This document shows positions 26,672-41,342 of a stretch of 64,000 nt of DNA, piece after piece. The stretch is from the NCBI GenBank assembly GCA_015075515.1, contig JABTUE010000003.1:700005-764004 (forward strand), read 5' to 3'. The translations under genes and the position numbers were made by a program. A model generated the notes under the pieces. The model was not told the origin of the DNA, searched no databases, and was given only the letters and a program-made list of their open reading frames with translations. Numbering within the stretch: the first letter of the stretch is position 1; every line of letters starts with the position of its first letter. The DNA comes from Planctomycetota bacterium (GTDB lineage Bacteria > Planctomycetota > UBA8742 > UBA2392).

Positions 26672-27400
26672 ATGCGCACCGGAATCTTCATTACAGGCAC
26701 GGACACCGGCGTCGGCAAAACGATCGTCTCGGCCGGGCTGGTGCTGGCTTTGCGCCAGCGCGGCCTGAACGTGGGCTACATGAAGCCGATTGAGACCGGC
26801 TGCCCGCTGGTTGACGGCGAAGTTCTGGCCAAGGACGCCCGGTTTGTCCGCGAAGTCACCGGCATCCGCGACGACATTGACCTGGTCTGCCCCTACCGCC
26901 TCAAGGCGCCCGCCGCGCCCAGCATCGCCAGCCGACTGGAAGACGTCCACGTGGACATGAACTACATCGTGGATCAGTACTTTCAGCTTTCACTGATGCA
27001 CGAGATCGTGGTGGTCGAGGGCGTAGGCGGCCTGATGGTGCCGCTAAACAACAACGACCTGGTCACCGACCTGATTCTGGCGCTGGGGCTTGAGGCCGTG
27101 GTGGTGGCACGCCCCACGCTGGGCACGATCAACCACACGCTGCTGACGGTGAACATGGCCAAGATGATGGGCATCGGCGTCGCCGGCGTGATCTTCAACG
27201 GGTTCGGCAAAGAGGCGATCGGTCTGCCCGAACGCACCAACCCCGACGAAGTTGAACACTTCGCCCAGGTACCGATTCTGGGCATTCTGCCGTGGCTGAA
27301 AGACCTTGATTACAACGCGCTGCGGGCCGGGTCGCTGCTGAGCGAGTTCAGCGAACGCATCAACATCAACTCATTGCTGCCCAAAGACGACGAATACTGA
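26672..27400 (+). CDS. bioD: dethiobiotin synthase
   Basis: MRTGIFITGTDTGVGKTIVSAGL P-loop and EGVGGLMVP motif. Confidence 0.9.
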   Translation: MRTGIFITGTDTGVGKTIVSAGLVLALRQRGLNVGYMKPIETGCPLVDGEVLAKDARFVREVTGIRDDIDLVCPYRLKAPAAPSIASRLEDVHVDMNYIVDQYFQLSLMHEIVVVEGVGGLMVPLNNNDLVTDLILALGLEAVVVARPTLGTINHTLLTVNMAKMMGIGVAGVIFNGFGKEAIGLPERTNPDEVEHFAQVPILGILPWLKDLDYNALRAGSLLSEFSERININSLLPKDDEY

Positions 27401-27405
27401 AGCAG

Positions 27406-27425
27406 CCGGCCCCTTGCGGGGCCGG
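27406..27425. terminator. bidirectional hairpin between convergent bioD and the toroid-2 gene
   Basis: CCGGCCCC ttgc GGGGCCGG fills the 31-nt convergent gap. Confidence 0.55.
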
Positions 27426-27431
27426 TGCGGT

Positions 27432-29309
27432 TTACTTGTCGCCGGTAAACACTTTCTTGCGCGGCGGAACGGTGCCCTTTTTCAGAAACAGCAGGGCAAA
27501 ACTGGTGTCCGTGGCCCCGCCCCAGCCACCGTCCTTGTCCTGCAATGCAAGCAGCGGGCAGCAGCCCTCATAGTACCAGTTGTGCTCGCCCATGAACTTG
27601 ATCGCCGCCAGCATGCCCACGCGTTCCAGTCCGTACATGTAGTAGTAGTACCAGTTGCGCCAGTACACAGGGTTGCGGGTCACGCTGAACCAGTACTCAT
27701 GCCAGGCCAGGCCGCACTCAATGGCATCCTGTACCGTCTTTTCCCACTGCTGGAACAAAGCCTTTGAGGTGAACTCGGCCTTGAAGTCGGCTTCGTTCAT
27801 ACCGTCGGCGATTTCAAGCCCGACCATCAGAATGGTCACGCCGCTGGCCGACATGCTGCCGTAGGCGGTGGTGGTGTCCTGGTACTTGTCCCAGGTTGCC
27901 TTCACACTGTAGTGAAAGCCGCGGGCTTCCACGGTTTTGGTGCTGTAGGTGGACTTGCCCTTGCCGCGCTGGGCGTCTTTGGGCGGGGTAAAGCTGATCA
28001 CGCGGCGCACCTTGGGGCCATTGGCCGCCTGCATCTTCAGGGTTTCGTCCACAAACTTCTTGGTGATGCCGGGCGGAATACGCACATTGCAGCGCTGGGC
28101 CGCAGCCAGACCCAGAATCGCGTACTGGGTGCAGGAAAAGTCAAAGCGCTGGGTGGTGGCCGGCGCTACCGGCGGCTCTTTCTTGTAGTTCCAGAACGGG
28201 TTGGTGTCGTTGCGGTTGGCGACAATCCAGGCCACCAGCCGCTCCATTTCGGCCCGGTCTTCGGGGCTCAGGTCGCGCTTGAGCGTTACCGGCTTGTCTG
28301 AGCTGAGGAACGAGCGGCGCTCTTCCACGGTGATATAGCGCGCCTCCAGCGCCATCAGCGAAACGCCCACGTCGTAGATGCAATCCAGAGGCAGGTCCTT
28401 AAGCTTGCGGAAGCTTTCGACAATCCGCTCGTCATCGGCTGGCACATCGCACATCAGCAGCGCCAGCAGGCTCAGCGCCGTGCCGCCGCGGGTGTGGTTG
28501 CCGTAGGGCCACAGACCTTCGGCGCTGCGCTGCTTCCACAGGCGCTCAACGCCCAGGGCAATCGCGCGCTCAACGCGACCGTTGAGAACCTTTTCTTCCC
28601 AAGCGTCAAAATCGCGCGTCATGCGCCATTCGACATCCCAGTCGTAGTAGTTCATCGGCCCGGGCTTGTCGCCCACGGCAGGGGTGATCAGCGACCCGCG
28701 CAGAATCACCCGCGCGCCGCGCAGCCAGCCACGCGGCATGTCGAAGTACGCCAGCGTGTCGGCCTCAAACGTGGTCAGACGCGACAACTGGGCCAAGCCC
28801 GCGGCGTCGTGCGCCTTGAGGCTGTGCTTGCCATAGATCAACCAGCAGTTCAGGCCGTTGTATTCGACCTGGGGTTTGAGTTCGTAGCTGGAGTTGACCG
28901 AGAAGTTGTTGAAGGTCTGGACCTTTTCGAACTTCCATTCGCGCTGCCAGGTGGCGCCGACTTTCTGCTTGCCGGCCGGCAGGTACATGGCCAGTTGCAT
29001 CAGCGCTTCATCGAGAATCAGCGGCTCATAGCGGCGCAGCCATTCGCCAGCGGACGAGATTTCATAGCCAAAGAAACCAACCCACTGTCCGGCGGGCTCG
29101 ACCTGTTTGTCTTCGCCCTGCAGCGGCGCGCGCGGGTCGAGTTTTTTCTGGTCAGCGACCGTGAAGTGCAGGTACTGGTTGACGCCCAGTGCCCAAGCCA
29201 ACTCGGCGCGGTCGTTGCCGGCCTGCATGTCGCTGTTGGCCAGACCAATGCTTGAAGTGCAAAGTATTGCGGCGCAGACGGCTGCCGGCGCCATAGCCCA
29301 GAAACGCAT
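27432..29309 (-). CDS. exported protein: unknown N-terminal domain + alpha/alpha-toroid (prenyltransferase/squalene-cyclase repeat) domain, paralog 2
   Basis: Signal peptide MRFWAMAPAAVCAAILCTSSIGLA. C-terminal repeats (GLWPYGNHTRGGTALSLLALL, LALQDKDGGWGG, TDTSFALLFLKKGT). GGGAGGAG RBS. Confidence 0.65.
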   Translation of the reverse strand: MRFWAMAPAAVCAAILCTSSIGLANSDMQAGNDRAELAWALGVNQYLHFTVADQKKLDPRAPLQGEDKQVEPAGQWVGFFGYEISSAGEWLRRYEPLILDEALMQLAMYLPAGKQKVGATWQREWKFEKVQTFNNFSVNSSYELKPQVEYNGLNCWLIYGKHSLKAHDAAGLAQLSRLTTFEADTLAYFDMPRGWLRGARVILRGSLITPAVGDKPGPMNYYDWDVEWRMTRDFDAWEEKVLNGRVERAIALGVERLWKQRSAEGLWPYGNHTRGGTALSLLALLMCDVPADDERIVESFRKLKDLPLDCIYDVGVSLMALEARYITVEERRSFLSSDKPVTLKRDLSPEDRAEMERLVAWIVANRNDTNPFWNYKKEPPVAPATTQRFDFSCTQYAILGLAAAQRCNVRIPPGITKKFVDETLKMQAANGPKVRRVISFTPPKDAQRGKGKSTYSTKTVEARGFHYSVKATWDKYQDTTTAYGSMSASGVTILMVGLEIADGMNEADFKAEFTSKALFQQWEKTVQDAIECGLAWHEYWFSVTRNPVYWRNWYYYYMYGLERVGMLAAIKFMGEHNWYYEGCCPLLALQDKDGGWGGATDTSFALLFLKKGTVPPRKKVFTGDK

Positions 29310-29348
29310 CGTCTCCTCCCTCGGCAGGCGGTTGTCCTCACAACGCGC

Positions 29349-31178
29349 CTAGCCCTCCCCCGTGACGACCCGCGACCTCAGTGGAACCGTACCCTTCTTC
29401 AGGAACAGCAGCGCAAACGACGTCTCGACAACCCCATCTCCCCACTTGCCGTTGTCGTGTTGCAATGCAAGCAACGGGCACGACCCTTGGTGGTACCAAG
29501 GATGTTCGCCAATGTACCGCATCCCGGCAAACATTGCGACTCTTTCCATACTATAAAGATAGTAGAAATACTCATGAAATTGGCTGCGCCAGGGGTTCCT
29601 CGTAACACTGTAAAAGTACTCCAGCCAGGTCAGGCCTCCTTCTAAACTGTTCTGCATCAAGAGGTTCCACTTGCCATACTCGGCCTTGGACCCGAATTCG
29701 GCATCCAGTTCCGGGCCTTGCAGGGCCATGCCCCATTCCGTGCACAGCATCTGGGTGATCAGGCCGGCGCAGGTCATGGACCCGTAGGGGGTACCCGTCC
29801 AGGCTTTTTCATCCCATGTGCCCCAGGTCATGTACTCCCAGCCGCGGCAATCAGTCGGCTTGGCGGCGCGGGCAAAGGCCGGCACGCCGCGGGCGTTGAC
29901 TTTGGCCGCCACAACACGGCGGTGCTTGGGCCCGTTCTGCTGCTGGTACTTCAGCAGGTAGCTGCTGACGGATTTGGGAATGTTGGGCGGGCGCTTCAGG
30001 CCGCAACGCACAGCGGCGGCCAGACCCATCATCACATAGTGTGTGGTTGAAAAGCACCATTTGCCACCGCCGGCGCCGCGTTCTTTGGTGTAAGTCCACA
30101 GCGGGTTGTCCGTGTTGCGGTTGTCCATCAGCCAGTCCACCAGCCGCTGCATTTCAGCGCGGTCTTCCGGCGTCAGGTTGCGCTTGGGAGGCGGCAGGTC
30201 GTCCGCACCGGCGATGTAATGCTTGCGCTCTTCGGCATCAATGTACTTGGACTCAATGGCCAGAATGGAGATCGCCGCGGCATAGGTGGTTTCCACCGGC
30301 AGGTCTTTCATCGCCGCAAAGGCCTGCACAATGCGCGGGTCAGTCGGCGAAACGTCCGACGCCAGCAACGCCGAAAGCGCCAGCGCCGTGCCGCCGCGGC
30401 GGTGCTGGTAAAACGGCCACAGGCCGTCCTTCTGAAGGGCAAACAGGGCGTCAACGCCCCTGGCAATCGCCCCGGCAATCTGGCGGTTCAGCATGTCGGT
30501 TTCGCGGCTGTCGTGGCGCGCGGCCAGCCGCCACTGGCCCGTCACGCGGTGCGACACCATCTGGCCCTCGGCGTTGCGGTGTTCGGCATCGAGCATCACG
30601 CGCAGTCCGCGCGCGCAGCGGGCCGCCGGGTCAAACCAACTGGTGGTGGTCAGGGTAAAGGCCGTCCAGCCAGCCTTGCCGGCGCCTTCGGCCACGGTGG
30701 ATTGCTTGCGCAACGTCCAGGTGCCGGTGATGACAGCACAACGGATCTTTTCGTGGTCTTCCAGACGTGCAAACTGCATGTCGGCGGCCAGCGCCAAAGG
30801 CGGCAGATCCACCAGGTGGGTAAAGTCGTGGTCGCGCTTCCAGGCGTGGCCGATCTTGTGCCGCCCGCCGGGCAGACTGCCGGCGCAGGCGGCCAGAAGC
30901 TCGTGCAGGCCAAGCGGCTGGACCGGCCCGGCGCGAAACCCGAACGAGTCAACTTCGTAGCCAAAGAAGTGATAGCGGCCAAGAGGCGCCGGCGCGTCGG
31001 GTGTGTCCAGAACCGGCGTTTCCAGCGGGGCGTAATGCAAATACACCGGGTGCGGCACATCCCAGGACAGGTCAACGCGGTCGGCCCCGGCCTGGCGCTG
31101 GCCGGCCACGCCGGGGGCAACGGCCAGCATCAGCACCGTGCCCGCAGCAACCGCAACTGCCCTGCGGATGCAGCCCAT
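29349..31178 (-). CDS. exported alpha/alpha-toroid repeat protein, paralog 1
   Basis: Collinear with paralog 2 (GLWPFYQHRRGGTALALSALL, LALQHDNGKWGD, ETSFALLFLKKGT), with a signal peptide. Confidence 0.65.
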   Translation of the reverse strand: MGCIRRAVAVAAGTVLMLAVAPGVAGQRQAGADRVDLSWDVPHPVYLHYAPLETPVLDTPDAPAPLGRYHFFGYEVDSFGFRAGPVQPLGLHELLAACAGSLPGGRHKIGHAWKRDHDFTHLVDLPPLALAADMQFARLEDHEKIRCAVITGTWTLRKQSTVAEGAGKAGWTAFTLTTTSWFDPAARCARGLRVMLDAEHRNAEGQMVSHRVTGQWRLAARHDSRETDMLNRQIAGAIARGVDALFALQKDGLWPFYQHRRGGTALALSALLASDVSPTDPRIVQAFAAMKDLPVETTYAAAISILAIESKYIDAEERKHYIAGADDLPPPKRNLTPEDRAEMQRLVDWLMDNRNTDNPLWTYTKERGAGGGKWCFSTTHYVMMGLAAAVRCGLKRPPNIPKSVSSYLLKYQQQNGPKHRRVVAAKVNARGVPAFARAAKPTDCRGWEYMTWGTWDEKAWTGTPYGSMTCAGLITQMLCTEWGMALQGPELDAEFGSKAEYGKWNLLMQNSLEGGLTWLEYFYSVTRNPWRSQFHEYFYYLYSMERVAMFAGMRYIGEHPWYHQGSCPLLALQHDNGKWGDGVVETSFALLFLKKGTVPLRSRVVTGEG

Positions 31179-31213
31179 GATGACGCTCCCGGCGCGGGCG
31201 CAAACCGCCCGCG

Positions 31214-31972
31214 TTACTTCAGGTCACGCAGCCTGTCCGCGGCCGTCCGGCGCAGATCGGCCAGCGTCTTCTGTCGCGACTGAAGTGTTTCCTTCAGCTT
31301 CTTGCTTTCACTGACCAATGCCGGCCCGTCATCTTCGCCCCTGACCTGGGCTTCGGCGCCGATCAGCTTGTCACAACGTTCAATGTCGGTCTTGATACGG
31401 GCCTCCTCGGCGGCGGCCCAGCGGTCAAACTCGGCCAGGCGCTCGCGGTCGCCCTTTTTCTGGGCGGCGGTCACGTCCGGGTCGGGGTCGGGCTTGCGCA
31501 CCTGGGGCACTTCCGGCAGCGACGACAGCGCCTCGGTCCAGGCTTCCAGAGCCAGACGGGCTTCGTTGATGCGGGGCGCCCAGGCTCCCTGGGCCGAAAG
31601 CTGGTTGACAGCATGCCCGCCGGCGGAGTTGCGCAGTTCCACCTGTTTGTCCATCAGCGCGCGGCGGGCGGAATCGCGGTTCTTCTGGGCTGTTTCGGCG
31701 GCCTTGCGCAGGTTCACGCCCTCGGTCTTGATCGCCTGGGCACGGGCGGGGTCTTTCTTGAGCGCGTCTTCGTAGGCGCGGTTGTTTTCGTTGACTTTGG
31801 TGTCGGCATCACTCAGGGCCTTTTCGGCCTCGGTCACCTTGACCGCCAGTTCGCTGATTTCCTTGCGCAACTGGCGGAAGTTGTTCTGGGCGTGCGCGAC
31901 CGGCGCCGCGGCCAGAGCGGCCAGAATCACGACCCATGCCAGGGTCCTACATGCCCGGTTTGCTGATGCCAT
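31214..31972 (-). CDS. exported coiled-coil protein
   Basis: Signal peptide (LAWVVILAALAAAPVAHA) followed by charged heptad-like sequence. The ATG lies inside the last codons of the response-regulator gene (26-nt overlap). Confidence 0.55.
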   Translation of the reverse strand: MASANRACRTLAWVVILAALAAAPVAHAQNNFRQLRKEISELAVKVTEAEKALSDADTKVNENNRAYEDALKKDPARAQAIKTEGVNLRKAAETAQKNRDSARRALMDKQVELRNSAGGHAVNQLSAQGAWAPRINEARLALEAWTEALSSLPEVPQVRKPDPDPDVTAAQKKGDRERLAEFDRWAAAEEARIKTDIERCDKLIGAEAQVRGEDDGPALVSESKKLKETLQSRQKTLADLRRTAADRLRDLK

Positions 31973-33278
31973 ACTTCTTCATCTTATACTGAAGCGCCGT
32001 GCGGCCCACGCCCAATACCCGCGCCGCCCGGCTGATGTTCCAGCCCGTTTCTTCCAGCGCCGTCACCAGCGCGTTGCGTTCGATCCGTTCCAGGTCGCCG
32101 ACCAGGCCCTTGGGCGGCTCTTCGCCCGGCGGCAGATCGCCGGCCTCGAGCAGTTCCGGCGGCAGATCGCCGCGCGCGACGCTGTCGCCCCGCGCCAGAG
32201 CGACGCAGCGACGCACCACGTTCTCGAGTTCGCGCACGTTGCCGGGCCAGTGGTAACGCTCCAGAATGCCCATGATCTCGGCCGGAAACTTCAGCCGGCT
32301 GTTTTCCCGCCCAAGAAAGTGCTGCACCAGCGCGCCCAGATCCCCCACCCGTTCGCGCAGCGGCGGCAGGGTCACGGTCACCACGTTCACGCGGTAATAC
32401 AGGTCTTCGCGGAAGCGGCCCTCCTTGACCATCTGGCGCAGGTTGCGGTTGGTGGCGCACACCAGCCGAACGTCCACGCGGATCGGCTGGCTGCCACCCA
32501 CGCGCTCGATCACCTTGTCCTGCAACACGCGCAGCAGCTTGACCTGTGTGCCGGCCGGGATTTCGCCCAGTTCGTCCAGAAACAACGTACCGCCGTCGGC
32601 GGTTTCAAAGCGGCCCTTGCGCTGGGCGTCGGCGCCGGTGAACGCGCCCTTCTCATGGCCAAACAGTTCGCTTTCCAGCACACCCTGGGCCAGCGCCCCG
32701 GCGTTGACGGCCACAAACGGCCCCCTGGCACGGCCCGAAAGGCCATGCACGGCCCGCGCCACCAGTTCCTTGCCGGTGCCGCTTTCGCCCAGCACCAGAA
32801 CCGGCACGGTGCTTTGGGCCGCGCGGCGCACAATATCGGCCACTTCGGCCAGTTGCGGGGCATTGCCCACCACGCCCGGCAGTGGCCCGCCGGCAGATGG
32901 CGTGTTGCGGCCCTCGGCAATCGCGCGCTCAACCTTGAACTCGAGTTCCGCCAGGTCAAACGGCTTTTCCATGAAGTCCGCCGCGCCCAGACTCATCGCC
33001 TCGACCGCGTCGCGCACGCTGCCGTGGGCAGTGATCATGATGAACGGCGGCGGTTCGCCACCCTTGGCCAGTTCACGCAACAGGCCCATGCCGTCCAGCC
33101 TGGGCATCTTCAGGTCACTGACAATCGCGTCAAAGCGCGTGGCCCGCGCCTGCTTCAGCGCGGCCTCGCCGTTTTCAGCCTGAGTAACGGCCATGCCCTT
33201 GGCCATAAGGGCCATCGCCAGCATGTCGCGCATGCTGGCCTTGTCGTCCACCACCAGAACATGGGGCTTGTCGCTCAA
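31947..33278 (-). CDS. sigma54-dependent response regulator (NtrC family)
   Basis: Receiver domain (VLVVDDK...DLKMP). AAA+ domain with GESGTGKE and the GAFTGA signature (EKGAFTGADA). C-terminal HTH. Confidence 0.9.
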   Translation of the reverse strand: MSDKPHVLVVDDKASMRDMLAMALMAKGMAVTQAENGEAALKQARATRFDAIVSDLKMPRLDGMGLLRELAKGGEPPPFIMITAHGSVRDAVEAMSLGAADFMEKPFDLAELEFKVERAIAEGRNTPSAGGPLPGVVGNAPQLAEVADIVRRAAQSTVPVLVLGESGTGKELVARAVHGLSGRARGPFVAVNAGALAQGVLESELFGHEKGAFTGADAQRKGRFETADGGTLFLDELGEIPAGTQVKLLRVLQDKVIERVGGSQPIRVDVRLVCATNRNLRQMVKEGRFREDLYYRVNVVTVTLPPLRERVGDLGALVQHFLGRENSRLKFPAEIMGILERYHWPGNVRELENVVRRCVALARGDSVARGDLPPELLEAGDLPPGEEPPKGLVGDLERIERNALVTALEETGWNISRAARVLGVGRTALQYKMKKYGISKPGM

Positions 33279-34591
33279 GGCTCGGTCTCTTTCAGAAAAG
33301 TCGCCCGGAATATGGTACCCGCCGGCCCGGTCTGGACCAACACAAGGTCGCCGCCCAGGTCACGCAGCAGCCGTCGGGCGATGGCAAGCCCGAGCCCGGT
33401 GCCGTCAGCCTTGCCTGTGACAAAGGGCTGAAACAGCCGGGCGCGGATTTCGTCGGGGATGCCCGGGCCGTTGTCGGCGACCTCAACGCTGACCTCGGGC
33501 CCGCGCAGGGCGGCGCGCAGCGTGACCTGGCCGGCGGCGACTTCGCGCAAGGCCTCGGCGGCGTTGTTGACCACGTTGCTCAGGGCTTCGCGCAACGCGG
33601 TGCTGTCTACTTCAAGTTCCGCCGCGGGCAGGTTGTCCGCGCGGATGGTCACGGTGTCGCCGGCCAGGCTGCGGGCGGTGTCCAGCACCGGACGCAGCAC
33701 CTGGTCCAGCGTGATGCGTTCAATGCTGCCCTTGCTGCCGCGCGAGAACTGCAGAAAGTCGCGCACCACGCGGTCCAGCGCGCCGATTTCGGAGATCAGC
33801 TTGTCGGCAATCTGTTTCTGCAGCGGGTCATTCAGGCCGCGGGCCAGCAGTTCAACGTACCCGCGCAGGGCAGCCAGCGGGTTCTTGATCTGGTGGGCCA
33901 TGCCGGCACTGAATTGCGCCAGTTCGGCCAGGCGCGTCTGTTTCTGCAGATCGCGCTGCACACGGCCCCAGGCCCGCGCCGCCACCAGCGCCGCCAGCAG
34001 CGTGACGGCAAAAACCACACCCACGGTCAGGGCCATGGTATTGCGCACGGCGACCAGACTGGCCGAATAGTCGGCCTCGATTTCGACAGCCACGGCAAAG
34101 GCGGCAACAGTGCCGTCGGAATTCAGCACAGGGGCAAACCCGTTGCGGTACAGGTTGCCCTCGGTGTCGCGGTAGGCAACGGTAGCCAGGGGCCCGCGCG
34201 AAAAACAGGCCTCAAGCTCGTTGGCGTCGTTGGCAAAGCCGTAGTCGCGGCTGCCAAAGGGGCTGTCTTCGGTGTCCACCAGCAGCGAGCCATCGCGGCG
34301 CAGAATGGCGATACGGCGCACGCCGCTGGCCTGTTTGAGAGCCGCCAGACGGCCACGGTACAGGCGTGCCACCGGGTCGTCACCCGAGGGCAGTTGTTCC
34401 AGTGCCCCGGCGCTCAGACCGGCGGCGGCGGCGGCGGCATAGCTGCGCAGCCGCCGTTCAAGCTGGTCCTCAAGCCCGCGTTCGATGTAACCGTAGGCGA
34501 TCAGCGCGCCGCCCAGCAGGGCACCGGCCACGGTCAGGGCGAAAACCAGGCCCAGCATCAGTGTCTGGGTGTTGCCGGGCCGCCGGGTCAT
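33275..34591 (-). CDS. sensor histidine kinase with a periplasmic sensing domain
   Basis: Two TM segments flank a domain of about 150 aa. H-box FSAGMAHQIKNPL. N and G boxes (NNAAEAL, DNGPGIP, GTGLGL). 4-nt overlap with the regulator gene. Confidence 0.9.
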   Translation of the reverse strand: MTRRPGNTQTLMLGLVFALTVAGALLGGALIAYGYIERGLEDQLERRLRSYAAAAAAGLSAGALEQLPSGDDPVARLYRGRLAALKQASGVRRIAILRRDGSLLVDTEDSPFGSRDYGFANDANELEACFSRGPLATVAYRDTEGNLYRNGFAPVLNSDGTVAAFAVAVEIEADYSASLVAVRNTMALTVGVVFAVTLLAALVAARAWGRVQRDLQKQTRLAELAQFSAGMAHQIKNPLAALRGYVELLARGLNDPLQKQIADKLISEIGALDRVVRDFLQFSRGSKGSIERITLDQVLRPVLDTARSLAGDTVTIRADNLPAAELEVDSTALREALSNVVNNAAEALREVAAGQVTLRAALRGPEVSVEVADNGPGIPDEIRARLFQPFVTGKADGTGLGLAIARRLLRDLGGDLVLVQTGPAGTIFRATFLKETEP

Positions 34592-35784
34592 CAGAAGTTC
34601 AGCTCCACAAACAGGGTGGCGGTGTGCACCGCATAGCCGGCGGCGTTAACGTCGCTGATGCGGCGCGAATAGCTGTAGCGCCCGCCCAGATACAGAAACG
34701 AATACACGTTGTAGGCAACTTCGGTCCACAGCATGGCGTAACGCTCGAACGTGGTCTTTACAGTGCTGTCCGGATCCAGCGAGTCCACGTCCACGCGGTC
34801 GTCGTATTCGCGGTGCCAGGCATCCAGGCCGAACGTGATGCGCAACGGCTCGTACAGATTCAGGTCCAGCGCGCCGCGCAGCCCGTACTGCCAGTACCGG
34901 TTAAATCCCGCGGCGCTGTCATCCTGGCGTAGCGAATAGACGCGGGCCTCGGCTTCGATCAGGCCGATGTCCAGGCGCACATCGGCGCCGTAGTTGAACT
35001 TCAGCAATTGCAGGTCGTCTTCCTGGCGCAGCAGCGTGCCGTCGTCCTGCAGGTCAAACTGGTCGCGGAACCAGGCATAGCTGAACTCGATGTACGGCCG
35101 GATCTCAAGCACATCCCAGGCGTTGATGTACACGCTGAAGTCACTGCCGATTTCCCAGTTGTCGTAACTGGGAACAGCGTTCTCTTCGCTGAAGTCGGTG
35201 GTCTTGCCGGTAAAGCCAAGCTCAAAGATTAAAAACGAAAGCGAATAACCCACGTGCACGCGGGCGATGCCGCCGCTGGCGCGCAGGTCGTCCTGGCGGG
35301 TCAGCGGGCCGGTCAGCTCGTAGGTCTGCAATTGCTGGTACAGCACGTCAGCCGAAATGCCGAAACCCCAGCCACCGCCGCCGTAGGGCACCTTGACAAA
35401 TCCACCCAGCTTGAGATCCCACATGTCGGCGTCGGGCTCGCCAAAATACAGGCGCCCGGCCACCGTGCCGCGGGCGCCCAGCGCCACCAGGCCGAAGTTG
35501 TGGCCAACCCAGGCCTGGGCTACAGCGTCGCCGAACAGGCCGTTATCGAGGTTGCGGTCTTCCTTGAAGATGTTGTTGTCCCAGCCAACGGAAGCGCGGG
35601 TGCGCAGGCCAAGCCCGGTGCGGTCGCGGCCCAGTGCCAGCGGCAGGTACTGGCCATCGGCCACGCCTCCGACCTCAAGATCGGCAAAGGGCTCCACGGG
35701 CTTTTTTTCGTCCGACGCACTGGCGGACTGGGCCGCAAGCGGCAGGGCCAGCACAAGGCAAAACGGCATCAGCCAACGAACCAT
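34591..35784 (-). CDS. outer-membrane beta-barrel protein
   Basis: Signal peptide (MVRWLMPFCLVLALPLAAQSASA). Alternating aromatic/hydrophilic strands and a C-terminal ...LFVELNF. GGAG lies 8 nt before the ATG at 35784. Confidence 0.65.
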   Translation of the reverse strand: MVRWLMPFCLVLALPLAAQSASASDEKKPVEPFADLEVGGVADGQYLPLALGRDRTGLGLRTRASVGWDNNIFKEDRNLDNGLFGDAVAQAWVGHNFGLVALGARGTVAGRLYFGEPDADMWDLKLGGFVKVPYGGGGWGFGISADVLYQQLQTYELTGPLTRQDDLRASGGIARVHVGYSLSFLIFELGFTGKTTDFSEENAVPSYDNWEIGSDFSVYINAWDVLEIRPYIEFSYAWFRDQFDLQDDGTLLRQEDDLQLLKFNYGADVRLDIGLIEAEARVYSLRQDDSAAGFNRYWQYGLRGALDLNLYEPLRITFGLDAWHREYDDRVDVDSLDPDSTVKTTFERYAMLWTEVAYNVYSFLYLGGRYSYSRRISDVNAAGYAVHTATLFVELNF

Positions 35785-36005
35785 GGCACGACTCCGGCAG
35801 GGCAAAGCAGGGGTGCCTGAGTTTAGGCCGGGCCAGGCGCCGTCACAATGCCGCCGATGGACCGGGGAGGTTGGCCGGGGGTTCCTCCCCGCGCCAACCT
35901 CCCGTTTGGACTTCCGGACAAAGTTGGCAGCCGGTCAGTGGGGCCATACCGCCGGCTGCCTTTCCCTTGTCATCTGAGGACCCGATCCCCAGACAACTGG
36001 GTAAG

Positions 36006-36021
36006 AGCACCCGGCGTGCCA
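36006..36021 (-). promoter_or_regulatory. candidate sigma54 (-24/-12) promoter for the barrel-kinase-regulator-toroid operon
   Basis: The minus strand reads TGGCACgccggGTGCT, with correct GG-N10-GC spacing. It lies about 220 nt upstream of the barrel gene start. The operon encodes a GAFTGA activator. Confidence 0.4.
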
Positions 36022-36149
36022 ATCCGTGCCTGGGGCACGCGCCGGCCTGCAAGTAGCTTGAACAAGGGGTTTTGCGGACACTTCCGGGTTTGGTCACTTT
36101 TGCCGGCCTCGGGCAGATTCGCCAGTTCTCAAGCGTTAGTGCCAGTGGC

Positions 36150-36169
36150 GGTGCCAGACTTTCGGCACC
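36150..36169. promoter_or_regulatory. perfect inverted repeat GGTGCC-N8-GGCACC (candidate activator/operator site)
   Basis: It lies about 130 nt upstream of the candidate sigma54 promoter and about 75 nt upstream of the XPB start. An extra GTGCCAG copy sits at 36139-36145. Confidence 0.3.
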
Positions 36170-36242
36170 CGGCCACGGACGCGTATCGCGCCGGGCCTGC
36201 CGCATGTAGAATGTTTCGTTCGATTTTCGGCCGGAGCAACGC

Positions 36243-37979
36243 GTGAATCAGCCCCGTGGACCAGCCATCGTACAGGCCGACCTTTCGATCCTGCTGGAAG
36301 TGGATCACCCTGACTACGAAACCGCCCGCGACGCGTTGGCCGGTTTTGCCGAATTGGTCAAGAGTCCCGAGCACATCCACACCTACCGCATCACACCGTT
36401 GAGTTTGTGGAACGCCGCCGCCAGCGGCATTTCCGCCCAGGACGTGCTGGGTGCCCTCAGGCGCTATTCGCGCTATGAGGTGCCCGAACTCGTCACCAGC
36501 GAAGTGGTCGAATACATCGGCCGCTACGGGCGTCTGGTTCTGGAGGAACGCAACGGCCGCCACATTCTGACCAGCCGCGACACCCAGTTGCTGGCGATGG
36601 TCGTCGGGCAGAAGTCCTGTGCGCGCTACTTTGACGGCATGCTGGACCAGCATACCGCGTTGCTGGCCCCGGGGGCACGCGGATGGCTCAAGCACGCGCT
36701 GGTCAAGATCGGCTTTCCGGTCGAAGACATCGCGGGCTACACCCCCGGCACGCCGCTGGAGGTCAAGCTGCGCGAGCGCACGCTGGAGGGCCGGCCGTTT
36801 GCCCTGCGCCGGTACCAGAAAATGGCCGCCGACACCTTTCATGCCGGCGGCGGCCCGCGCGGCGGCAGCGGCGTGATCGTTCTGCCATGCGGCGCTGGCA
36901 AGACCATCGTGGGCATGGCGGCCATGTCGCTGGTGCGTGCCCACACCCTGATCCTTACCGCCAACGTGGTGGCCGTTCGCCAGTGGATCCGCGAACTGGT
37001 GGACAAAACCGGCCTCAGTCCCGACCAGGTGGCCGAATACACCGGCGACAGCAAGGCGATTGCGCCCGTCACCGTGGCCACGTACCAGATCGTCACCTAC
37101 CGCAAGCGCAAAAGCGAGGAGTTCCCCCACTTTGAGCTGTTCCGGCGCGGCGACTGGGGGCTGATCATCTACGACGAAGTACACCTTCTGCCCGCGCCGG
37201 TGTTTCGCGCCACGGCTGAAATCCAGTCGCGCCGGCGCCTTGGCCTTACCGCCACGCTGGTGCGCGAGGACGGGCTTGAAGAAGACGTGTTCAGCCTGGT
37301 GGGCCCCAAGCGTTACGACGTGCCCTGGCGCGAACTGGAAAAGCAGGGCTGGATCGCCACGGCCGACTGCACCGAAATTCGCGTGGATCTGCCCCCCGGC
37401 CAGCGTCTGCCCTACGCCATGGCCGACCAGCGCGAGCAGTACCGCATTTCGGCCGAAAACCCGGTCAAAATGGACGTGCTGGAGGCCCTGTTGAAGCTGC
37501 ACGCCGGCGACCGTGTGCTGGTGATCGCCCAGTATCTGGACCAGTTGCACGAGATCGAACGGCGTTTCGGCTTTCCGCTGATCGAAGGCAAGACTCCCAC
37601 CAAACGGCGCGAAGAACTGTACGCGAAATTCCGCACCGGCCAGCTCAAGGCGCTGATTGTCAGCAAGGTCGGCAACTTCGCCATTGACCTGCCCGACGCC
37701 AACGTGATGGTCCAGCTTTCGGGCACGTTCGGGTCGCGCCAGGAAGAAGCCCAGCGCCTGGGCCGTATCCTGCGCCCCAAGGGCGACGGCCAGCTTGCGC
37801 ACTTCTACACGATCGTGACACGCGAAACCCGCGACCAGGACTTCGGCGCCAACCGCCAGTTGTTTCTGGTCGAACAGGGCTATCGTTACCGCATGGTGGA
37901 AGCCGCCGACATCCTGCAACAGCGGTTTGAGCCCGCGCGCCCCGTCACGGCGCCGGTCGGTCAGGGGGCGGCGCCATGA
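36243..37979 (+). CDS. XPB/Rad25 (ERCC3)-type SF2 DNA helicase
   Basis: GTG start after GGAG. Walker A (LPCGAGKTIVG), DEVH box (IIYDEVHLLPA), motif III with the XPB RED signature (GLTATLVREDG) and motif VI (QRLGRILR). Confidence 0.85.
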   Translation: MNQPRGPAIVQADLSILLEVDHPDYETARDALAGFAELVKSPEHIHTYRITPLSLWNAAASGISAQDVLGALRRYSRYEVPELVTSEVVEYIGRYGRLVLEERNGRHILTSRDTQLLAMVVGQKSCARYFDGMLDQHTALLAPGARGWLKHALVKIGFPVEDIAGYTPGTPLEVKLRERTLEGRPFALRRYQKMAADTFHAGGGPRGGSGVIVLPCGAGKTIVGMAAMSLVRAHTLILTANVVAVRQWIRELVDKTGLSPDQVAEYTGDSKAIAPVTVATYQIVTYRKRKSEEFPHFELFRRGDWGLIIYDEVHLLPAPVFRATAEIQSRRRLGLTATLVREDGLEEDVFSLVGPKRYDVPWRELEKQGWIATADCTEIRVDLPPGQRLPYAMADQREQYRISAENPVKMDVLEALLKLHAGDRVLVIAQYLDQLHEIERRFGFPLIEGKTPTKRREELYAKFRTGQLKALIVSKVGNFAIDLPDANVMVQLSGTFGSRQEEAQRLGRILRPKGDGQLAHFYTIVTRETRDQDFGANRQLFLVEQGYRYRMVEAADILQQRFEPARPVTAPVGQGAAP

Positions 37980-38173
37980 AGTTTCACCTGCATGTGGGAG
38001 TAATCGAGGCCGAAAGTGAGCAGGCCCTGAACGAGGCGCTGACAATCGCGCGCTGTGAGGCCCGCGTACTGGCGCGCCTTGCCCCCAACGTGGCGGTCCT
38101 GGAACGCGGCGACACGCAACTGGTGATCGCGGCGCTGCGGGAACTGGGCCTTCACCCCAAGGTGATGCAATGA
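37976..38173 (+). CDS. 65-aa protein of unknown function, coupled on both sides
   Basis: There are ATGA overlaps with the XPB stop (37976) and with the next start (38170). The sequence resembles the C-terminal module of the next protein (EAESEQAL... vs CDSDEQAM...). Confidence 0.55.
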   Translation: MKFHLHVGVIEAESEQALNEALTIARCEARVLARLAPNVAVLERGDTQLVIAALRELGLHPKVMQ

Positions 38174-39897
38174 AGGGCGCGGCCACGGATCAAGGCAGGG
38201 GCTACCGGGCCGGCGAGCTTGATTTTTTGAGCGTCGCCGAGGCCGTGATTGAACGTCAGCCGCGCGTGTTGAAAAATGGGCTGCCCAATCTGGCGTTCTT
38301 CCGGGCGGCCAACGCCAACCTGGCCCAGCCCGATGACGAAGCCCAAGGGCACGGCTTTGCGCAGGTGGAGTTCTGGCTGACACTGGCGCGCGAACTCGGG
38401 CTGACTGCAACCGACGGTGACCGACTGGCGATTACCGATGCCGCCGACGAGTTTTTTGCCCAACCGCTTGCTGCACGGCGCGATCGCCTGCGCGAGGCCT
38501 TTCTGGGCGCCCGGTCGCTGAATGACTTTGCCCTGGTGGGCGATCTGGAATTGCCCGGTCTGCGCAAGTCCGGCACCGTGGACACCACCACCGACGCGCC
38601 GGGCCCCGAGGCGCTGGCCGCGGCGCGACGGCGCGTGCTGGAGTTTGTGCTGGCCTGCGCGGGCGAAACCCGGGTCGCGCGCCTGTGTCAGCAGGTCCAG
38701 CGCGAAGCCCCCAGCTTTGCCATTGACCACAGCGACGACGGGTCGTGGCGACGCGTGTTTTACCGCGGCATCCGCGAACGCGGCGGCCGCGAAGAAATCG
38801 AACGCGACGGCGGCTGGGATCGCGTCGAGGGCGCGTACATCCGGTGGCTGGTTTCGCTGCCGTTTGCGCGGCTCGGCTGGGTGGACTACGACCCGGCCCG
38901 CGATGCCTTTGAACCACTGACCACGGAAGACGGCGACCCGATCTTTGAGATCGTGGTACAGCCCAACTTCGAAGTGCTGGTGCTGGGCGACCGGCTGGAT
39001 GCCGGGACGCTGTGGCGGCTGGCGCGCTTTGCACGCCCGGCCATGCAGGGCCGCGTCCGCCGCTATATGCTGGAAAAGAAGTCTTTTACCGACGCGCTGG
39101 GCCGCGGCCTGAGCGCAGGCGCGATACTGGAGCTTTTGTCTTCACTGTCGCGCCGGCCCTTGCCCCAGAACGTGCGCTTTTCACTCGAGGAATGGAGCGC
39201 CAGTTCCGAACGCATGAAAATCTGGCCCGACGCGCTGCTGGTCGAGGCCGAAGGCGTAGACGACCTTGCGGCGCTGCTGCCCGAGGCCGCACGCCGCGCT
39301 CTGGGCCTGGCGCGCATCGGCGGCGGGCACATGGCCGCCGTCGCGCCCGATGCCGCGCTGTTGCGCCAGCATGTGCCGCCGCGCCGCGCGATACTGGACT
39401 ATTCGCGGCGGTTGCCGCCGGCGATCACACCCCAGGGTGACCTGCGGCTGCACGCCCCGGCTGAGTCATTGCACCTGCGCGCGCGCCAGACACTGGAACT
39501 GGTGGCGCGACGCCAGGGTGCCGACCACTGGCTGCTGGATCCGGCACTGACCCGCGCCGCCGCCACAGCACTGGGGCCCGACGAATTGCGACGGCGCGTC
39601 GAAGAAGCACTGACCCGGCCGCTGGAACAGGCCCACGCGCTGGCCTTGCGTGCCTGGAGCGGCGAGTTCGCGCCGGCCTTTGCCGGCAGCGCCGAGGTGT
39701 TTCTGTGCGACAGCGACGAACAGGCAATGCTGCTTGAACAAGTTCCCGAGTTCGCGGCGTGGCTGGATCGCAAGCTGGGCCGCGGCGCCTATCTGCTGCG
39801 CCACGGAGGCGCCGCAGCGGTGCGCAAACTTCTGGCAGGCTGCGGCGTAACACTGCGTGACCACACCCGAACAGACTCGCAGGGCAGGCGTCCATGA
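38170..39897 (+). CDS. XPB-associated 575-aa protein carrying a copy of the XPB N-terminal module
   Basis: The central segment (IVVQPNFEVLVLG...RRYMLEKKSFTDALGRGLSAGAILELLSSLSRRPLPQNV) aligns with the XPB N-terminus (IVQADLSILLEV...HTYRITPLSLWNAAASGISAQDVLGALRRYSRYEVPELV). Confidence 0.65.
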   Translation: MKGAATDQGRGYRAGELDFLSVAEAVIERQPRVLKNGLPNLAFFRAANANLAQPDDEAQGHGFAQVEFWLTLARELGLTATDGDRLAITDAADEFFAQPLAARRDRLREAFLGARSLNDFALVGDLELPGLRKSGTVDTTTDAPGPEALAAARRRVLEFVLACAGETRVARLCQQVQREAPSFAIDHSDDGSWRRVFYRGIRERGGREEIERDGGWDRVEGAYIRWLVSLPFARLGWVDYDPARDAFEPLTTEDGDPIFEIVVQPNFEVLVLGDRLDAGTLWRLARFARPAMQGRVRRYMLEKKSFTDALGRGLSAGAILELLSSLSRRPLPQNVRFSLEEWSASSERMKIWPDALLVEAEGVDDLAALLPEAARRALGLARIGGGHMAAVAPDAALLRQHVPPRRAILDYSRRLPPAITPQGDLRLHAPAESLHLRARQTLELVARRQGADHWLLDPALTRAAATALGPDELRRRVEEALTRPLEQAHALALRAWSGEFAPAFAGSAEVFLCDSDEQAMLLEQVPEFAAWLDRKLGRGAYLLRHGGAAAVRKLLAGCGVTLRDHTRTDSQGRRP

Positions 39898-41342
39898 GCA
39901 GAACGCAAACAACCGCGAGTAACCAACGGGAAATCTCGGCCCGTGTGCGGGTGTGGGCGTTCATGGCCTGGTTGCTGTTTCTTGCATCCTGCACGCTGCC
40001 CGGCGAACAACCATTGCCCGAAGGCGTCACCGACACGCGCGCCAATCTTGTGGATCACATCAAGGACAATCCGACGGACCTTGACGCCCACGCCGACCTG
40101 CTGCGCATGCAGATCAAATCCGGGGACCGCGCCGGCGCCGAGACCACAGTGGCCCACGCGCTGAAACACAACCCGCGCGATTTTCGCGCCCACCTGCTGG
40201 AGGCCCAGTACCACCGCTGGCAGCTTGACCTGATCACCACCGAAAAGGCCCTGCTCAAGGCCCGGGCAACAGCGCCCGAGCGTCTGGAACCCTGTGTGGC
40301 GCTGGCCGGCCTGTACAACCAGACCTATCTGGACACCGAAGAACTGGCGCTGCGCCGCGTGGCGCTGGAACTCTGCCCGCCCGAACTGCGGCCCGAGTTC
40401 ACGCTGGATCTGGCCTATTGCCTTTGGGGCCAGGGCAACGCCGCCGCCGCGACACCTCTGGCAGCGGCTCTGGCAGGCCAGACCGACACGCCGGCCGGTC
40501 TGCGCGCCCGTAACCGGCTGCTGCAGGCCGAAATGGCGCTGGCCGGCGGAACCGGTACCGAGGCCGCGGGGCACATCGCCGCAGCCTTTGCACTTGTACC
40601 CGAAGACGGCGGCGTGCTGCAGTTTGCCGCGCGCGCCGCCACGGTGCTGGACGACCCGGCCCCCCTTGCGCCGCTATTTGAGCAAACGCTGGCCGGACAT
40701 GACCGCGCCGAGCTGCGCTGGACGGCCCTGTTCGGCCATTGGATGCTGGCTCTGCGCAAATCTGTGGCAGCCGGCTCTGACCCGCTGGGCGACGAGCCCG
40801 ACCTGTGGCGCAAACGCCTGGAAGCCATGGAACCCGGCCACCCCGATGTTTCGGGGCGGTACTACCAGCTTCTGCGCCTGGATTCCGCGCGCGCACAGCA
40901 GGCCGAAACGCTGGGCAAACAGCTTGAGGAATACGGACTTGGCGTGCCGCCGGTGCCTTCAACCCACGCGGCGCTGCTGAGACTGTGGCGTGTGGAAGAC
41001 GCCCTGCGGGTGGGAGCCTCAAATCCGGCGGTGGCCCTGGCAACCGAGCTGCGCCGGGCCGAGGGCGAACTGGAGGGTTCGCGCATGCTGCTGGTCATGG
41101 CCCTGTTCAAGGCCCGTCAGGACGACCGGTGCCTGGCCGAAGTGGAGGCCTGGCTGGCTGAAAGCAAGGAGCCCGACGATATCCTGCTGTCGCTGCGCTG
41201 GTGGCTGCTGCTGCGCCAGGGAAAATCGGTGGAAGTTCTGGCCGACATCGAAAAGCGTGGCGGAGACAACAACAGTCGGCTGTGGCTGGAGGCAGTGGCC
41301 CGCTTTCACACCTATCGCGCCGCCGCGCGCAAGGGCGAATAG
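39894..41342 (+). CDS. TPR-like helical-repeat lipoprotein
   Basis: The ATGA overlaps the previous stop. Signal with lipobox (WLLFLASC). Helical repeats are rich in A/L/R. Confidence 0.6.
   Translation: MSRTQTTASNQREISARVRVWAFMAWLLFLASCTLPGEQPLPEGVTDTRANLVDHIKDNPTDLDAHADLLRMQIKSGDRAGAETTVAHALKHNPRDFRAHLLEAQYHRWQLDLITTEKALLKARATAPERLEPCVALAGLYNQTYLDTEELALRRVALELCPPELRPEFTLDLAYCLWGQGNAAAATPLAAALAGQTDTPAGLRARNRLLQAEMALAGGTGTEAAGHIAAAFALVPEDGGVLQFAARAATVLDDPAPLAPLFEQTLAGHDRAELRWTALFGHWMLALRKSVAAGSDPLGDEPDLWRKRLEAMEPGHPDVSGRYYQLLRLDSARAQQAETLGKQLEEYGLGVPPVPSTHAALLRLWRVEDALRVGASNPAVALATELRRAEGELEGSRMLLVMALFKARQDDRCLAEVEAWLAESKEPDDILLSLRWWLLLRQGKSVEVLADIEKRGGDNNSRLWLEAVARFHTYRAAARKGE

Follow-up and report, generated by a model that had tools for sequence, protein, structure and literature searches.

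Results

Organization of a six-gene envelope operon

The subject of this study is a run of six minus-strand genes at positions 27432-35784 of a 64-kb stretch of Planctomycetota DNA (hereafter the window, meaning the whole stretch that was analysed), which together encode a beta-barrel, a two-component regulatory system and a set of exported proteins. The first gene (34591-35784) encodes the barrel protein, 397 aa from an ATG at 35784, and this start is preceded by a GGAG whose spacing to the ATG is kept in relatives; the longest start reported by the open reading frame (ORF) finder is a TTG at 35805, which extends the span of the unit to 27432-35805. It is followed on the same strand by genes for a sensor histidine kinase (33275-34591, 438 aa), an NtrC-family regulator (31947-33278, 443 aa, with a TTG start), a coiled-coil protein (31214-31972, 252 aa) and two proteins built around an alpha/alpha toroid, termed toroid A (29349-31178, 609 aa) and toroid B (27432-29309, 625 aa).

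Direct reading of the junctions shows that the barrel and kinase genes overlap by 1 nt (TGATG), the kinase and regulator genes by 4 nt (TTGA) and the regulator and coiled-coil genes by 26 nt. The coiled-coil gene is separated from that of toroid A by 35 nt holding a GC hairpin and a GGGAG ribosome-binding site, and the two toroid genes are separated by 39 nt holding an imperfect GC hairpin and GAGGGAGGAG, a ribosome-binding site of the GGGAG type. All five lengths match those given in an initial annotation of this DNA, as do the signal peptides that it placed on the four non-regulatory products, since signal peptides of the n-h-c type can be read from the translated N-termini of the barrel, the coiled-coil protein, toroid A and toroid B. 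Pfam and NCBIfam contain no family for any of these four products, and full-text literature searches found no account of such an operon system. As a feature the operon is genuine and has clear limits. It is assembled from known kinds of part, namely a two-component system, a sigma-54 promoter, a porin fold and a toroid of the squalene-hopene cyclase type, and their combination and the protein families have not been described before.

Beyond the last gene, between the convergent toroid B and bioD-like genes, lies a GC-rich hairpin of 8 bp at 27406-27425, assigned to neither strand (CCGGCCCC-GCAA-GGGGCCGG). This element had been described as a bidirectional terminator. The hairpin itself is genuine, but a T tract is absent from it and the terminator scan did not list it; it is possibly a terminator that lacks a T tract.

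A sigma-54 promoter and candidate enhancer precede the barrel gene

How would such a unit be expressed? A sigma-54 (-24/-12) promoter, TGGCACGCCGGGTGCT, was located on the minus strand at 36021-36006, with a predicted transcription start near 35995. It carries one mismatch to the consensus TGGCAC-N5-TTGCW (-24 GG / -12 GC) and is the sole match to TGGCA[CT]-N5-nTGC[TA] in the window. Among 23 loci from GTDB species representatives, 22 have the motif upstream of the barrel gene and on the correct strand, against only three matches elsewhere in ~0.93 Mb, and the intergenic alignment shows no variation in it. A motif scan of the loci found no second sigma-54 motif before the toroid genes.

Approximately 130-150 nt upstream of the promoter, at 36150-36169 on the minus strand, lies a candidate enhancer (upstream activating sequence) formed by the inverted repeat GGTGCC-N8-GGCACC, and further CTGGCAC/CTGGCG copies follow it down to ~36115. 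The alignment columns TGCC..N8..GGCA and CTGGCAC are kept in five of six aligned loci, within an otherwise diverged spacer, and the first repeat is missing in L003. The inverted repeat is a candidate binding site of the operon's own activator. The activator gene lies inside the operon and the sigma-54 promoter lies ahead of the barrel gene, so that the operon carries the gene for the activator of the very promoter that precedes it. At the level of sequence, autoregulation through sigma-54/NtrC-type positive feedback is a firm prediction, the activity of which we infer, and all of the non-regulatory products placed under this control would be extracytoplasmic. The initial annotation had proposed a self-regulated sigma-54 unit, and the promoter conserved ahead of the barrel gene agrees with this proposal.

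A conserved leader RNA

The leader between the predicted transcription start and the barrel gene contains two hairpins that were predicted with RNAalifold from seven loci. Leader hairpin 1 (35970-35996, minus strand) starts at about +1 and has 12 pairs, several of which are compensatory. Leader hairpin 2 (35926-35960, minus strand; GGCAGCCGG...CCGGCUGCC) has 13 pairs, three of them with compensatory changes, namely G-C to A-U in three of the seven loci. Altogether 8 of the 25 predicted leader pairs are compensatory, and many G.U pairs are possible on the sense strand of the operon only. Between loci in which the barrel proteins share only 43% identity, both hairpins are kept and the sequence of hairpin 2 hardly varies. 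Hairpin 2 appears attenuator-like because its loop, CGGUAUGGCCCCACUGA, is almost invariant and a U-rich run follows it in several loci. Attenuation is one possible role for it, and another is to form the 3' end of a short sigma-54-dependent RNA. An Rfam scan of 27000-36400 returned no family for the leader. The same leader holds a further strong hairpin of 10 or more bp (GGGAGGTTGGC...GCCAACCTCCC, window positions 35865-35903, minus strand), which is absent from the aligned relatives and thus specific to the window.

The kinase and regulator are of the generic NtrC class

The initial annotation had identified the second and third products as a sensor kinase and a sigma-54 activator, and both identities agree with the domains found. 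The kinase has two transmembrane helices around a periplasmic domain of ~150 aa, followed by HisKA (Pfam, 2.9e-16) and HATPase_c (4.8e-22) domains. The regulator matches Sigma54_activat (1.5e-69), Response_reg (4e-28) and HTH_8 (1.7e-16) as well as AAA_lid, and its translation contains GAFTGA; a receiver, an AAA+ domain and a Fis-type HTH are the parts expected of the NtrC family. The best NCBIfam equivalogs for the pair are AtoS/AtoC, NtrC and ZraS/ZraR. ZraS is the second-best match of the kinase at 117.7 bits against a cut-off of 479, and ZraR ranks sixth among the matches of the regulator, behind AtoC and NtrC, at 367.8 bits against a cut-off of 760. Since every equivalog score falls far below its curated cut-off, the kinase and regulator are best described as generic members of the NtrC class. 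The periplasmic sensor domain matches no Pfam family, and the faint matches seen among seven orthologues were to dCache_1 (E = 0.087, in L005) and LapD_MoxY_N (E = 0.25, in L011).

Read depth rises about ten-fold over window positions 32010-33077, which encode the AAA+ domain, in all metagenome and metatranscriptome runs, with many chimeric joints. This rise is due to contigs from the conserved activator genes of other organisms and is not a feature of the locus.

The barrel and coiled-coil proteins

An alignment-based AlphaFold2 (AF2) model of the barrel protein (predicted local distance difference test, pLDDT, 78) has 16 strands, and Foldseek matches it with probability 1.0 to OmpG, Omp38, OccD2, OprB, OmpF, PorB and AlgE, with template modelling (TM) scores of at most 0.5; the list of matches also holds the specific channels OccD/K, LamB, CymA and ChiP. 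The protein thus combines the marks of an outer-membrane porin fold, namely a signal peptide, 16 antiparallel strands and a C-terminal aromatic residue, the Phe of the terminal ...VELNF. As modelled, the barrel is a porin fold that belongs to no specific family, in accord with the beta-barrel first suggested for this product. A PDB sequence and profile search returned nothing for it, and its 47 homologues are all from metagenome-assembled genomes (MAGs) of Planctomycetota. The protein carries many invariant Arg, Asp and Glu residues. A role of the barrel as a dedicated secretion pore for the toroids was considered unlikely: the model has 16 strands and no POTRA or periplasmic domain, and a barrel of this kind is unable to pass a folded protein of 600 aa. 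A second, lone barrel paralogue was seen on another contig of isolate SJ126 (L035:10001-11206), where it has no sigma-54 motif.

The coiled-coil protein is exported and helical, with a signal peptide ending ...PVAHA/QNN, and its orthologues are 33-52% identical with conserved landmarks. Against Pfam and the PDB it gave generic coiled-coil noise only. It matched none of the LTXXQ/Spy/ZraP families of Pfam, and OmpH (Skp) was matched by a single one of seven coiled-coil orthologues at E = 0.51. The 26-nt overlap of its gene with that of the regulator recurs in five of seven loci examined (L001, L003, L006, L009 and L011), and the 1-nt overlap of the barrel and kinase genes is likewise present in five of seven.

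The toroid proteins pair a rare beta domain with a toroid that lacks cyclase motifs

Over their full length, toroid A and toroid B share 40% identity (E = 3e-132). As modelled by AF2 (pLDDT 90; predicted TM score 0.89), toroid B consists of a signal helix, an all-beta domain at residues ~34-235 made of long antiparallel strands and one helix, and a single alpha/alpha toroid at 239-609, inside which a basic beta-hairpin is inserted at 433-461. The best PDB match of this model in Foldseek has E = 1.7e-3, and all matches of the toroid have TM scores of at most 0.53 and root-mean-square deviations (rmsd) above 7 Å. The weak neighbours of the toroid include AprG, complement C4b (E = 3.4e-3), C5, A2M, glucose and cellobiose 2-epimerases, GH9, GH63 and GGTase-I beta (E = 0.2).

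At the level of profiles, the family matches squalene-hopene cyclase (SHC) with E = 1.4e-5 over one QW repeat only (246-302 against SHC 468-526). Pfam SQHop_cyclase_C and SQHop_cyclase_N are detected in 7 and 4, respectively, of 28 sequences comprising family members and distant relatives, and the motif Q-x(2-5)-G-x-W occurs one to three times in 17 of 23 family members and is absent from the other six. The squalene-cyclase/prenyltransferase-type repeats that the initial annotation placed in the C-terminal half are therefore present, and so is its statement on catalytic motifs correct: DxDD occurs in none of the 23 family members, and neither window paralogue has DDxxD, which among the 23 members occurs only once, as an unconserved DDKAE in the orthologue P0022. 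The thioester-like SCTQY noted in one paralogue did not hold up, in that orthologues have C, V, N or I at the position of its Cys and toroid A has Thr; this residue is no more than a variable position of the conserved motif D-x-S-x-T-Q-Y, and CxEQ is found in none of the 23 members. Moreover, a single toroid stands here behind a beta domain and a signal peptide, as opposed to the double (beta-gamma) toroid of SHC, a membrane-monotopic cytoplasmic enzyme. Cyclase, prenyl-diphosphate and thioester readings fail because DxDD, a conserved DDxxD and CxEQ are absent and the Cys of SCTQY is variable. A terpene cyclase or prenyltransferase enzyme was rejected on these motifs together with the export and single toroid of the protein, and a thioester domain of the A2M/TED type was rejected as well.

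The N-terminal half had been called unrecognised, and neither window protein gives a direct family hit. A profile of this domain searched against 1.84 billion representative proteins (E <= 1e-3) recovered only 24 proteins, most of them ~565-650 aa, and the distant ones that were tested carry an SHC-like toroid. Among the recovered proteins, at E = 1.8e-4, is P0095, which with 31.7 bits counts as a true member of Pfam DUF6263, and P0022 scores 24.6 bits (E = 2.2e-5) against DUF6263, just under the gathering threshold of 26.7. For these two reasons the N-domain appears remotely DUF6263-like, and it is at best a remote and very rare relative of DUF6263, itself a domain-of-unknown-function family. 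Foldseek had been suggested as a check of this half and yielded very weak neighbours only (YmcC, LmcA, lipovitellin, ApoB and MTP; E 0.025-0.7, TM at most 0.36).

When the toroid region alone was used as the query, 189 proteins were found, beginning with ~60 close two-domain members and continuing into exported Planctomycetota proteins that are 28-37% identical, of which those with a name in their source are called, among others, 'prenyltransferase/squalene oxidase repeat-containing', 'terpene cyclase/mutase family' or 'glycogen-binding domain-containing'. In seven distant relatives the toroid is fused to an N-terminal NPCBM, which occupies the position of the DUF6263-like domain in the operon's toroids, and in seven it is fused to a C-terminal AMPK1_CBM/CBM48; the other distant toroids have HEAT repeats, DUF4159 or no partner module, and some distant relatives match Pfam TED_complement. 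These fusions to carbohydrate-binding modules (CBMs) are the only positive hint of a ligand, and they favour a glycan over an isoprenoid because two of the partner modules bind carbohydrate. Residues that are invariant family-wide are mostly aromatic or polar (Y312, W373, S392, Q427, Y467, W536, R563 and W578), some of them lying in the structural QW motifs, and D390, Q395, R406, Y556 and E562 are nearly invariant. The distant relatives share the motifs D-x-S-N-T-Q-Y, ARGW-Y, GSM, RNP and YYYLYGLER. One distant toroid paralogue of two-domain length, P0131 (37% identical), is encoded in the genome of a relative directly after a 1422-aa He_PIG/Ig-repeat surface protein (L037:5646-11896), with no two-component system nearby.

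The operon is confined to one clade and occupies one site

When 185,579 species genomes were scanned with the barrel profile, 23 loci emerged, each labelled as a MAG of Planctomycetota or Planctomycetaceae, and in the searches made here both the toroid family and the barrel are known from metagenome-assembled Planctomycetota only. Most of the source samples recorded came from wastewater, sludge or bioreactors, and some from hot springs and mats; in samples X1-X3 the locus is present at 100% of sampled words. The cluster is confined to ~23 species-level Planctomycetota MAGs, in which it always occupies the same core-genome site. The order barrel-kinase-regulator-coiled-coil-toroid is kept in essentially all 23 loci, with one or two toroid genes and one operon copy per locus, and of the 20 loci with enough downstream sequence, 19 carry a toroid gene beyond the coiled-coil gene and in the same orientation, sometimes after an insertion. 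In the window, L005 and L011 the toroid gene starts 1-58 nt after the coiled-coil gene, and in several loci this spacing reaches 90-180 nt. What had been annotated as a six-gene operon thus stands as a tight and conserved sigma-54 unit in the window, but its six-gene form is lineage-specific, with most relatives having five genes and a single toroid. In the closer loci, conservation decreases from the regulator through the kinase, the barrel and toroid B to the coiled-coil protein.

Where relatives have a single toroid gene, it is orthologous to that of toroid B, and toroid A falls in a long-branch clade with the first copy of L011, a matching first copy being present in L014. Judged by sequence, the toroid duplication is shared by the window and its nearest relatives L011 and L014, with toroid A as the fast-evolving paralogue. 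The second toroid copy of L005 and others belongs to a different paralogue lineage. In L005 (12013-13878) this second toroid is split into ORFs of 518 and 88 aa, which represents a frameshift, a pseudogene or an assembly error.

With regard to the flanks, every locus long enough to show it has an XPB-helicase operon (window 36243-41342) upstream of the barrel gene and divergent from it, and bioD/Opp genes are the usual downstream neighbours. Ribosomal-protein genes adjoin in L009/L010 and in the window, and the five-gene block is kept despite a different downstream flank in L009/L010, L016 and L017. The XPB and barrel units share the intergenic region with the enhancer-like repeats (window; loci L014-L036).

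Discussion

We propose that the operon is an autoregulated, clade-specific sigma-54 module of the core genome for envelope sensing and homeostasis, with the toroids as effectors of a binding type whose ligand is probably a glycan. A probability of roughly 45% is assigned to this reading as a whole. It is favoured because the locus is universal in the clade, occurs once per locus and is syntenic in the core genome, and because the barrel and coiled-coil genes are coupled translationally to the signalling genes. According to this model, the periplasmic domain of the kinase would sense a periplasmic signal, possibly jointly with the barrel and the coiled-coil protein, and the kinase would phosphorylate the NtrC-type activator, which would then bind the upstream repeats and open the sigma-54 promoter. 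The activator would thereby raise its own level, by positive feedback, together with the levels of the barrel, the coiled-coil protein and the toroids. The toroids would be the output of the circuit, being exported, devoid of cyclase and thioester motifs, and composed of a putative target-recognition beta domain (DUF6263-like) and a QW-repeat toroid. They would most probably bind an envelope or extracellular polymer, or act on such a polymer by means other than cyclase chemistry, and a glycan would be a likelier target than an isoprenoid.

Several observations weigh against this proposal. The signal, the ligand and the activity are ones that we infer. All Foldseek matches of toroid B are weak (E >= 1.7e-3), a single SHC repeat is the sole significant sequence link of the toroid to a solved structure, and the glycan idea draws on fusions in relatives that are only 28-34% identical. 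Moreover, all carriers form one clade in which the flanks are syntenic too, especially the divergent XPB operon, and because of this extended synteny co-conservation is weak evidence of functional linkage. The persistence of the five-gene block beside altered downstream flanks and the recurrence of the 1-nt and 26-nt overlaps tell more. Conservation of the gene neighbourhood was a check put forward with the initial annotation, and its outcome is divided: the order is kept in essentially all loci, but the synteny is clade-wide and the toroid is separable in some of them. In L022, genes for a PLD-like nuclease and a helicase lie between the coiled-coil and toroid genes. In L023 (14565-15509, minus strand), a gene for a 314-aa exported protein lies between them on the opposite strand, for which reason the toroid gene there requires a promoter of its own. 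In L033 (14498-16717, isolate SJ126), no toroid adjoins the coiled-coil gene, and a 312-aa ORF and a GT4 glycosyltransferase gene are found instead. The toroids of L022 and L023 (and that of L033) are therefore expressed on their own or not at all, and the invariant unit is barrel-kinase-regulator-coiled-coil, because the toroid is separable from it in L022 and L023 or missing in L033. The insert in L022 (14566-19640) measures ~5 kb, and its two products, of 349 and 672 aa, were taken on visual inspection for a PLD-type nuclease and a DEAD/ResIII-type helicase, respectively; it looks like a mobile or defence insertion.

Transcript data do not add to the case. Metatranscriptome X4 covers the whole stretch; its contigs run through the convergent terminator as well as the divergent promoter, and relative to the DNA run from that sample their ratio is flat, for which reasons X4 probably contains DNA. 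The four sludge metatranscriptomes X25-X28 yield scattered fragments at a depth of 2-5, on the operon and on neighbouring genes alike. At most, a basal presence can be read from these data, which do not bear on co-transcription or operon structure.

Which other functions would account for the same set of genes? A possible, if doubtful, answer is substrate-induced acquisition, in which the barrel would be a specific channel, the toroids would be periplasmic binders or glycan-active enzymes of the (alpha/alpha)6 type, and the kinase would sense the substrate or a breakdown product. Such an arrangement would be loosely analogous to uptake loci in which a porin and a binding protein are under two-component control. 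The dense invariant Arg, Asp and Glu residues of the barrel, and its better conservation than that of the toroid and coiled-coil protein at most distances, are typical of specific channels, and OprB, OccD/K, LamB, CymA, ChiP and AlgE, which are channels of this kind, appear in its Foldseek list. Most of the weak neighbours of the toroid are sugar-active (alpha/alpha)6 barrels (AprG, 2-epimerases, GH9 and GH63), and the CBM fusions of its relatives, the variable toroid copy number and the divergent paralogue lineages all fit acquisition. However, the operon includes neither an inner-membrane transporter nor a catabolic enzyme, and a universal, single-copy locus that is syntenic in the clade core is unlike the patchy islands of nutrient genes. 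In addition, no conserved catalytic acid pair was assigned in the toroids, and their Foldseek matches stay at a TM score of at most 0.53 with an rmsd above 7 Å.

The core-genome site would suit an envelope stress response of the ZraPSR/Cpx type, which we consider unlikely, with the coiled-coil protein as a periplasmic chaperone or feedback partner (like ZraP, CpxP and Spy) and the toroids as protective binders induced on damage. The rank of ZraS as the second-best match of the kinase and of ZraR as the sixth of the regulator points in this direction, and the 26-nt overlap of the regulator and coiled-coil genes, kept in distant loci, suggests a fixed stoichiometry between the two products. On the other hand, the ZraS and ZraR scores lie far under the equivalog cut-offs, the coiled-coil protein matches neither LTXXQ/Spy/ZraP nor OmpH, and the faint Cache/PDC-like signals in the sensor domain are better suited to a small ligand. 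A bolder scheme, to be regarded as speculative and as improbable as a stress response, would make the barrel, the coiled-coil protein and the kinase an undescribed trans-envelope sensor, with its sigma-54 output gated by the terminator-like leader RNA as a new cis-acting element and the toroids forming a new class of periplasmic effectors for a glycan or lipid of the Planctomycetota envelope.

Handling of isoprenoid lipids is very unlikely. The SHC-derived toroid would in this case retain a cavity for hopanoids or polyprenyls, the beta domain would act as the lipid carrier and the barrel as the acceptor in the outer membrane. SHC is indeed the only significant link to a solved structure, SQHop_cyclase_C and SQHop_cyclase_N are detected in 7 and 4 of 28 sequences, and the weak neighbours of the N-domain include proteins of lipid binding and transfer. 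However, these neighbours of the N-domain are matched at E >= 0.025 with TM scores of at most 0.36, the similarity to SHC is limited to a single structural QW repeat and leaves out the active site, the vicinity has no genes for isoprenoid biosynthesis, and the CBM fusions of relatives point to glycans. It is no more credible that the toroids are mere neighbours of a functional unit made of barrel, kinase, regulator and coiled-coil protein, their adjacency being clade-wide synteny of the sort seen in the equally conserved and presumably unrelated XPB flank. The insertions in L022 and L023, the lack of a toroid in L033 and the 90-180-nt gaps of several loci speak for this view; against it stand the same-orientation toroid gene in 19 of 20 loci, the gaps of 1-58 nt in the window, L005 and L011, the survival of the adjacency through changes of downstream flank and the near confinement of the N-domain-plus-toroid architecture to this locus (24 representatives in 1.84 billion).

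The envelope of Planctomycetota is unusual and poorly understood, and many exported, terpene cyclase-like ring proteins of obscure role are encoded in these bacteria. At the locus described here, such toroids, together with a pore and a coiled-coil protein, are the sole non-regulatory cargo of a compact sigma-54 circuit with a defined promoter, enhancer and leader. If the role of the toroids were solved, it would be the first function for the toroid family and a further documented case for the proposed role of sigma-54 in governing chiefly the bacterial exterior. This uncultured lineage lives in wastewater and bioreactors, so practical impact is limited for now.

Comparison with known systems places the envelope-sensing module that we propose among familiar parts in an unfamiliar arrangement. 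It resembles AtoSC, ZraSR and NtrBC in its HisKA/HATPase_c kinase, its regulator with a receiver, an AAA+ domain (GAFTGA) and a Fis-HTH, its GG-N10-GC promoter, the inverted repeat ~130-150 nt upstream and its predicted autoregulation; it differs from them in that the equivalog cut-offs are missed, the sensor domain has no family, the structural genes are undescribed and the operon opens with a barrel gene that overlaps that of the kinase. Like porins such as OmpF/OmpC, OprB, OccD/K and OmpG, which it matches with a Foldseek probability of 1.0, the barrel has a signal peptide, 16 antiparallel strands and an aromatic residue at its C-terminus, whereas it has no sequence family, TM scores of at most 0.5, high conservation and many invariant charged residues, and is co-translated with a histidine kinase. 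In common with SHC and other class II terpene cyclases and with prenyltransferase beta subunits, the toroids have an alpha/alpha toroid with Q-x(2-5)-G-x-W repeats and an SHC profile match (E = 1.4e-5), yet they are exported, carry a single toroid after a beta domain and have no DxDD in 23 members, and GGTase-I beta is matched at E = 0.2 only. The thioester domain (TED) of alpha-2-macroglobulin, C3 and C4 is of the same toroid superfamily, is also extracytoplasmic and is represented by weak Foldseek matches to C4b, C5 and A2M; by contrast, the toroids described here have no CxEQ, a variable Cys in SCTQY and no macroglobulin domains. Closest to them are the exported 'prenyltransferase/squalene oxidase repeat-containing' proteins of Planctomycetota, which have a homologous toroid (28-37% identical) and shared motifs, but in which the toroid is joined to NPCBM, CBM48, HEAT, DUF4159 or no module, whereas in this operon it is joined to a DUF6263-like domain and encoded within a sigma-54 unit.

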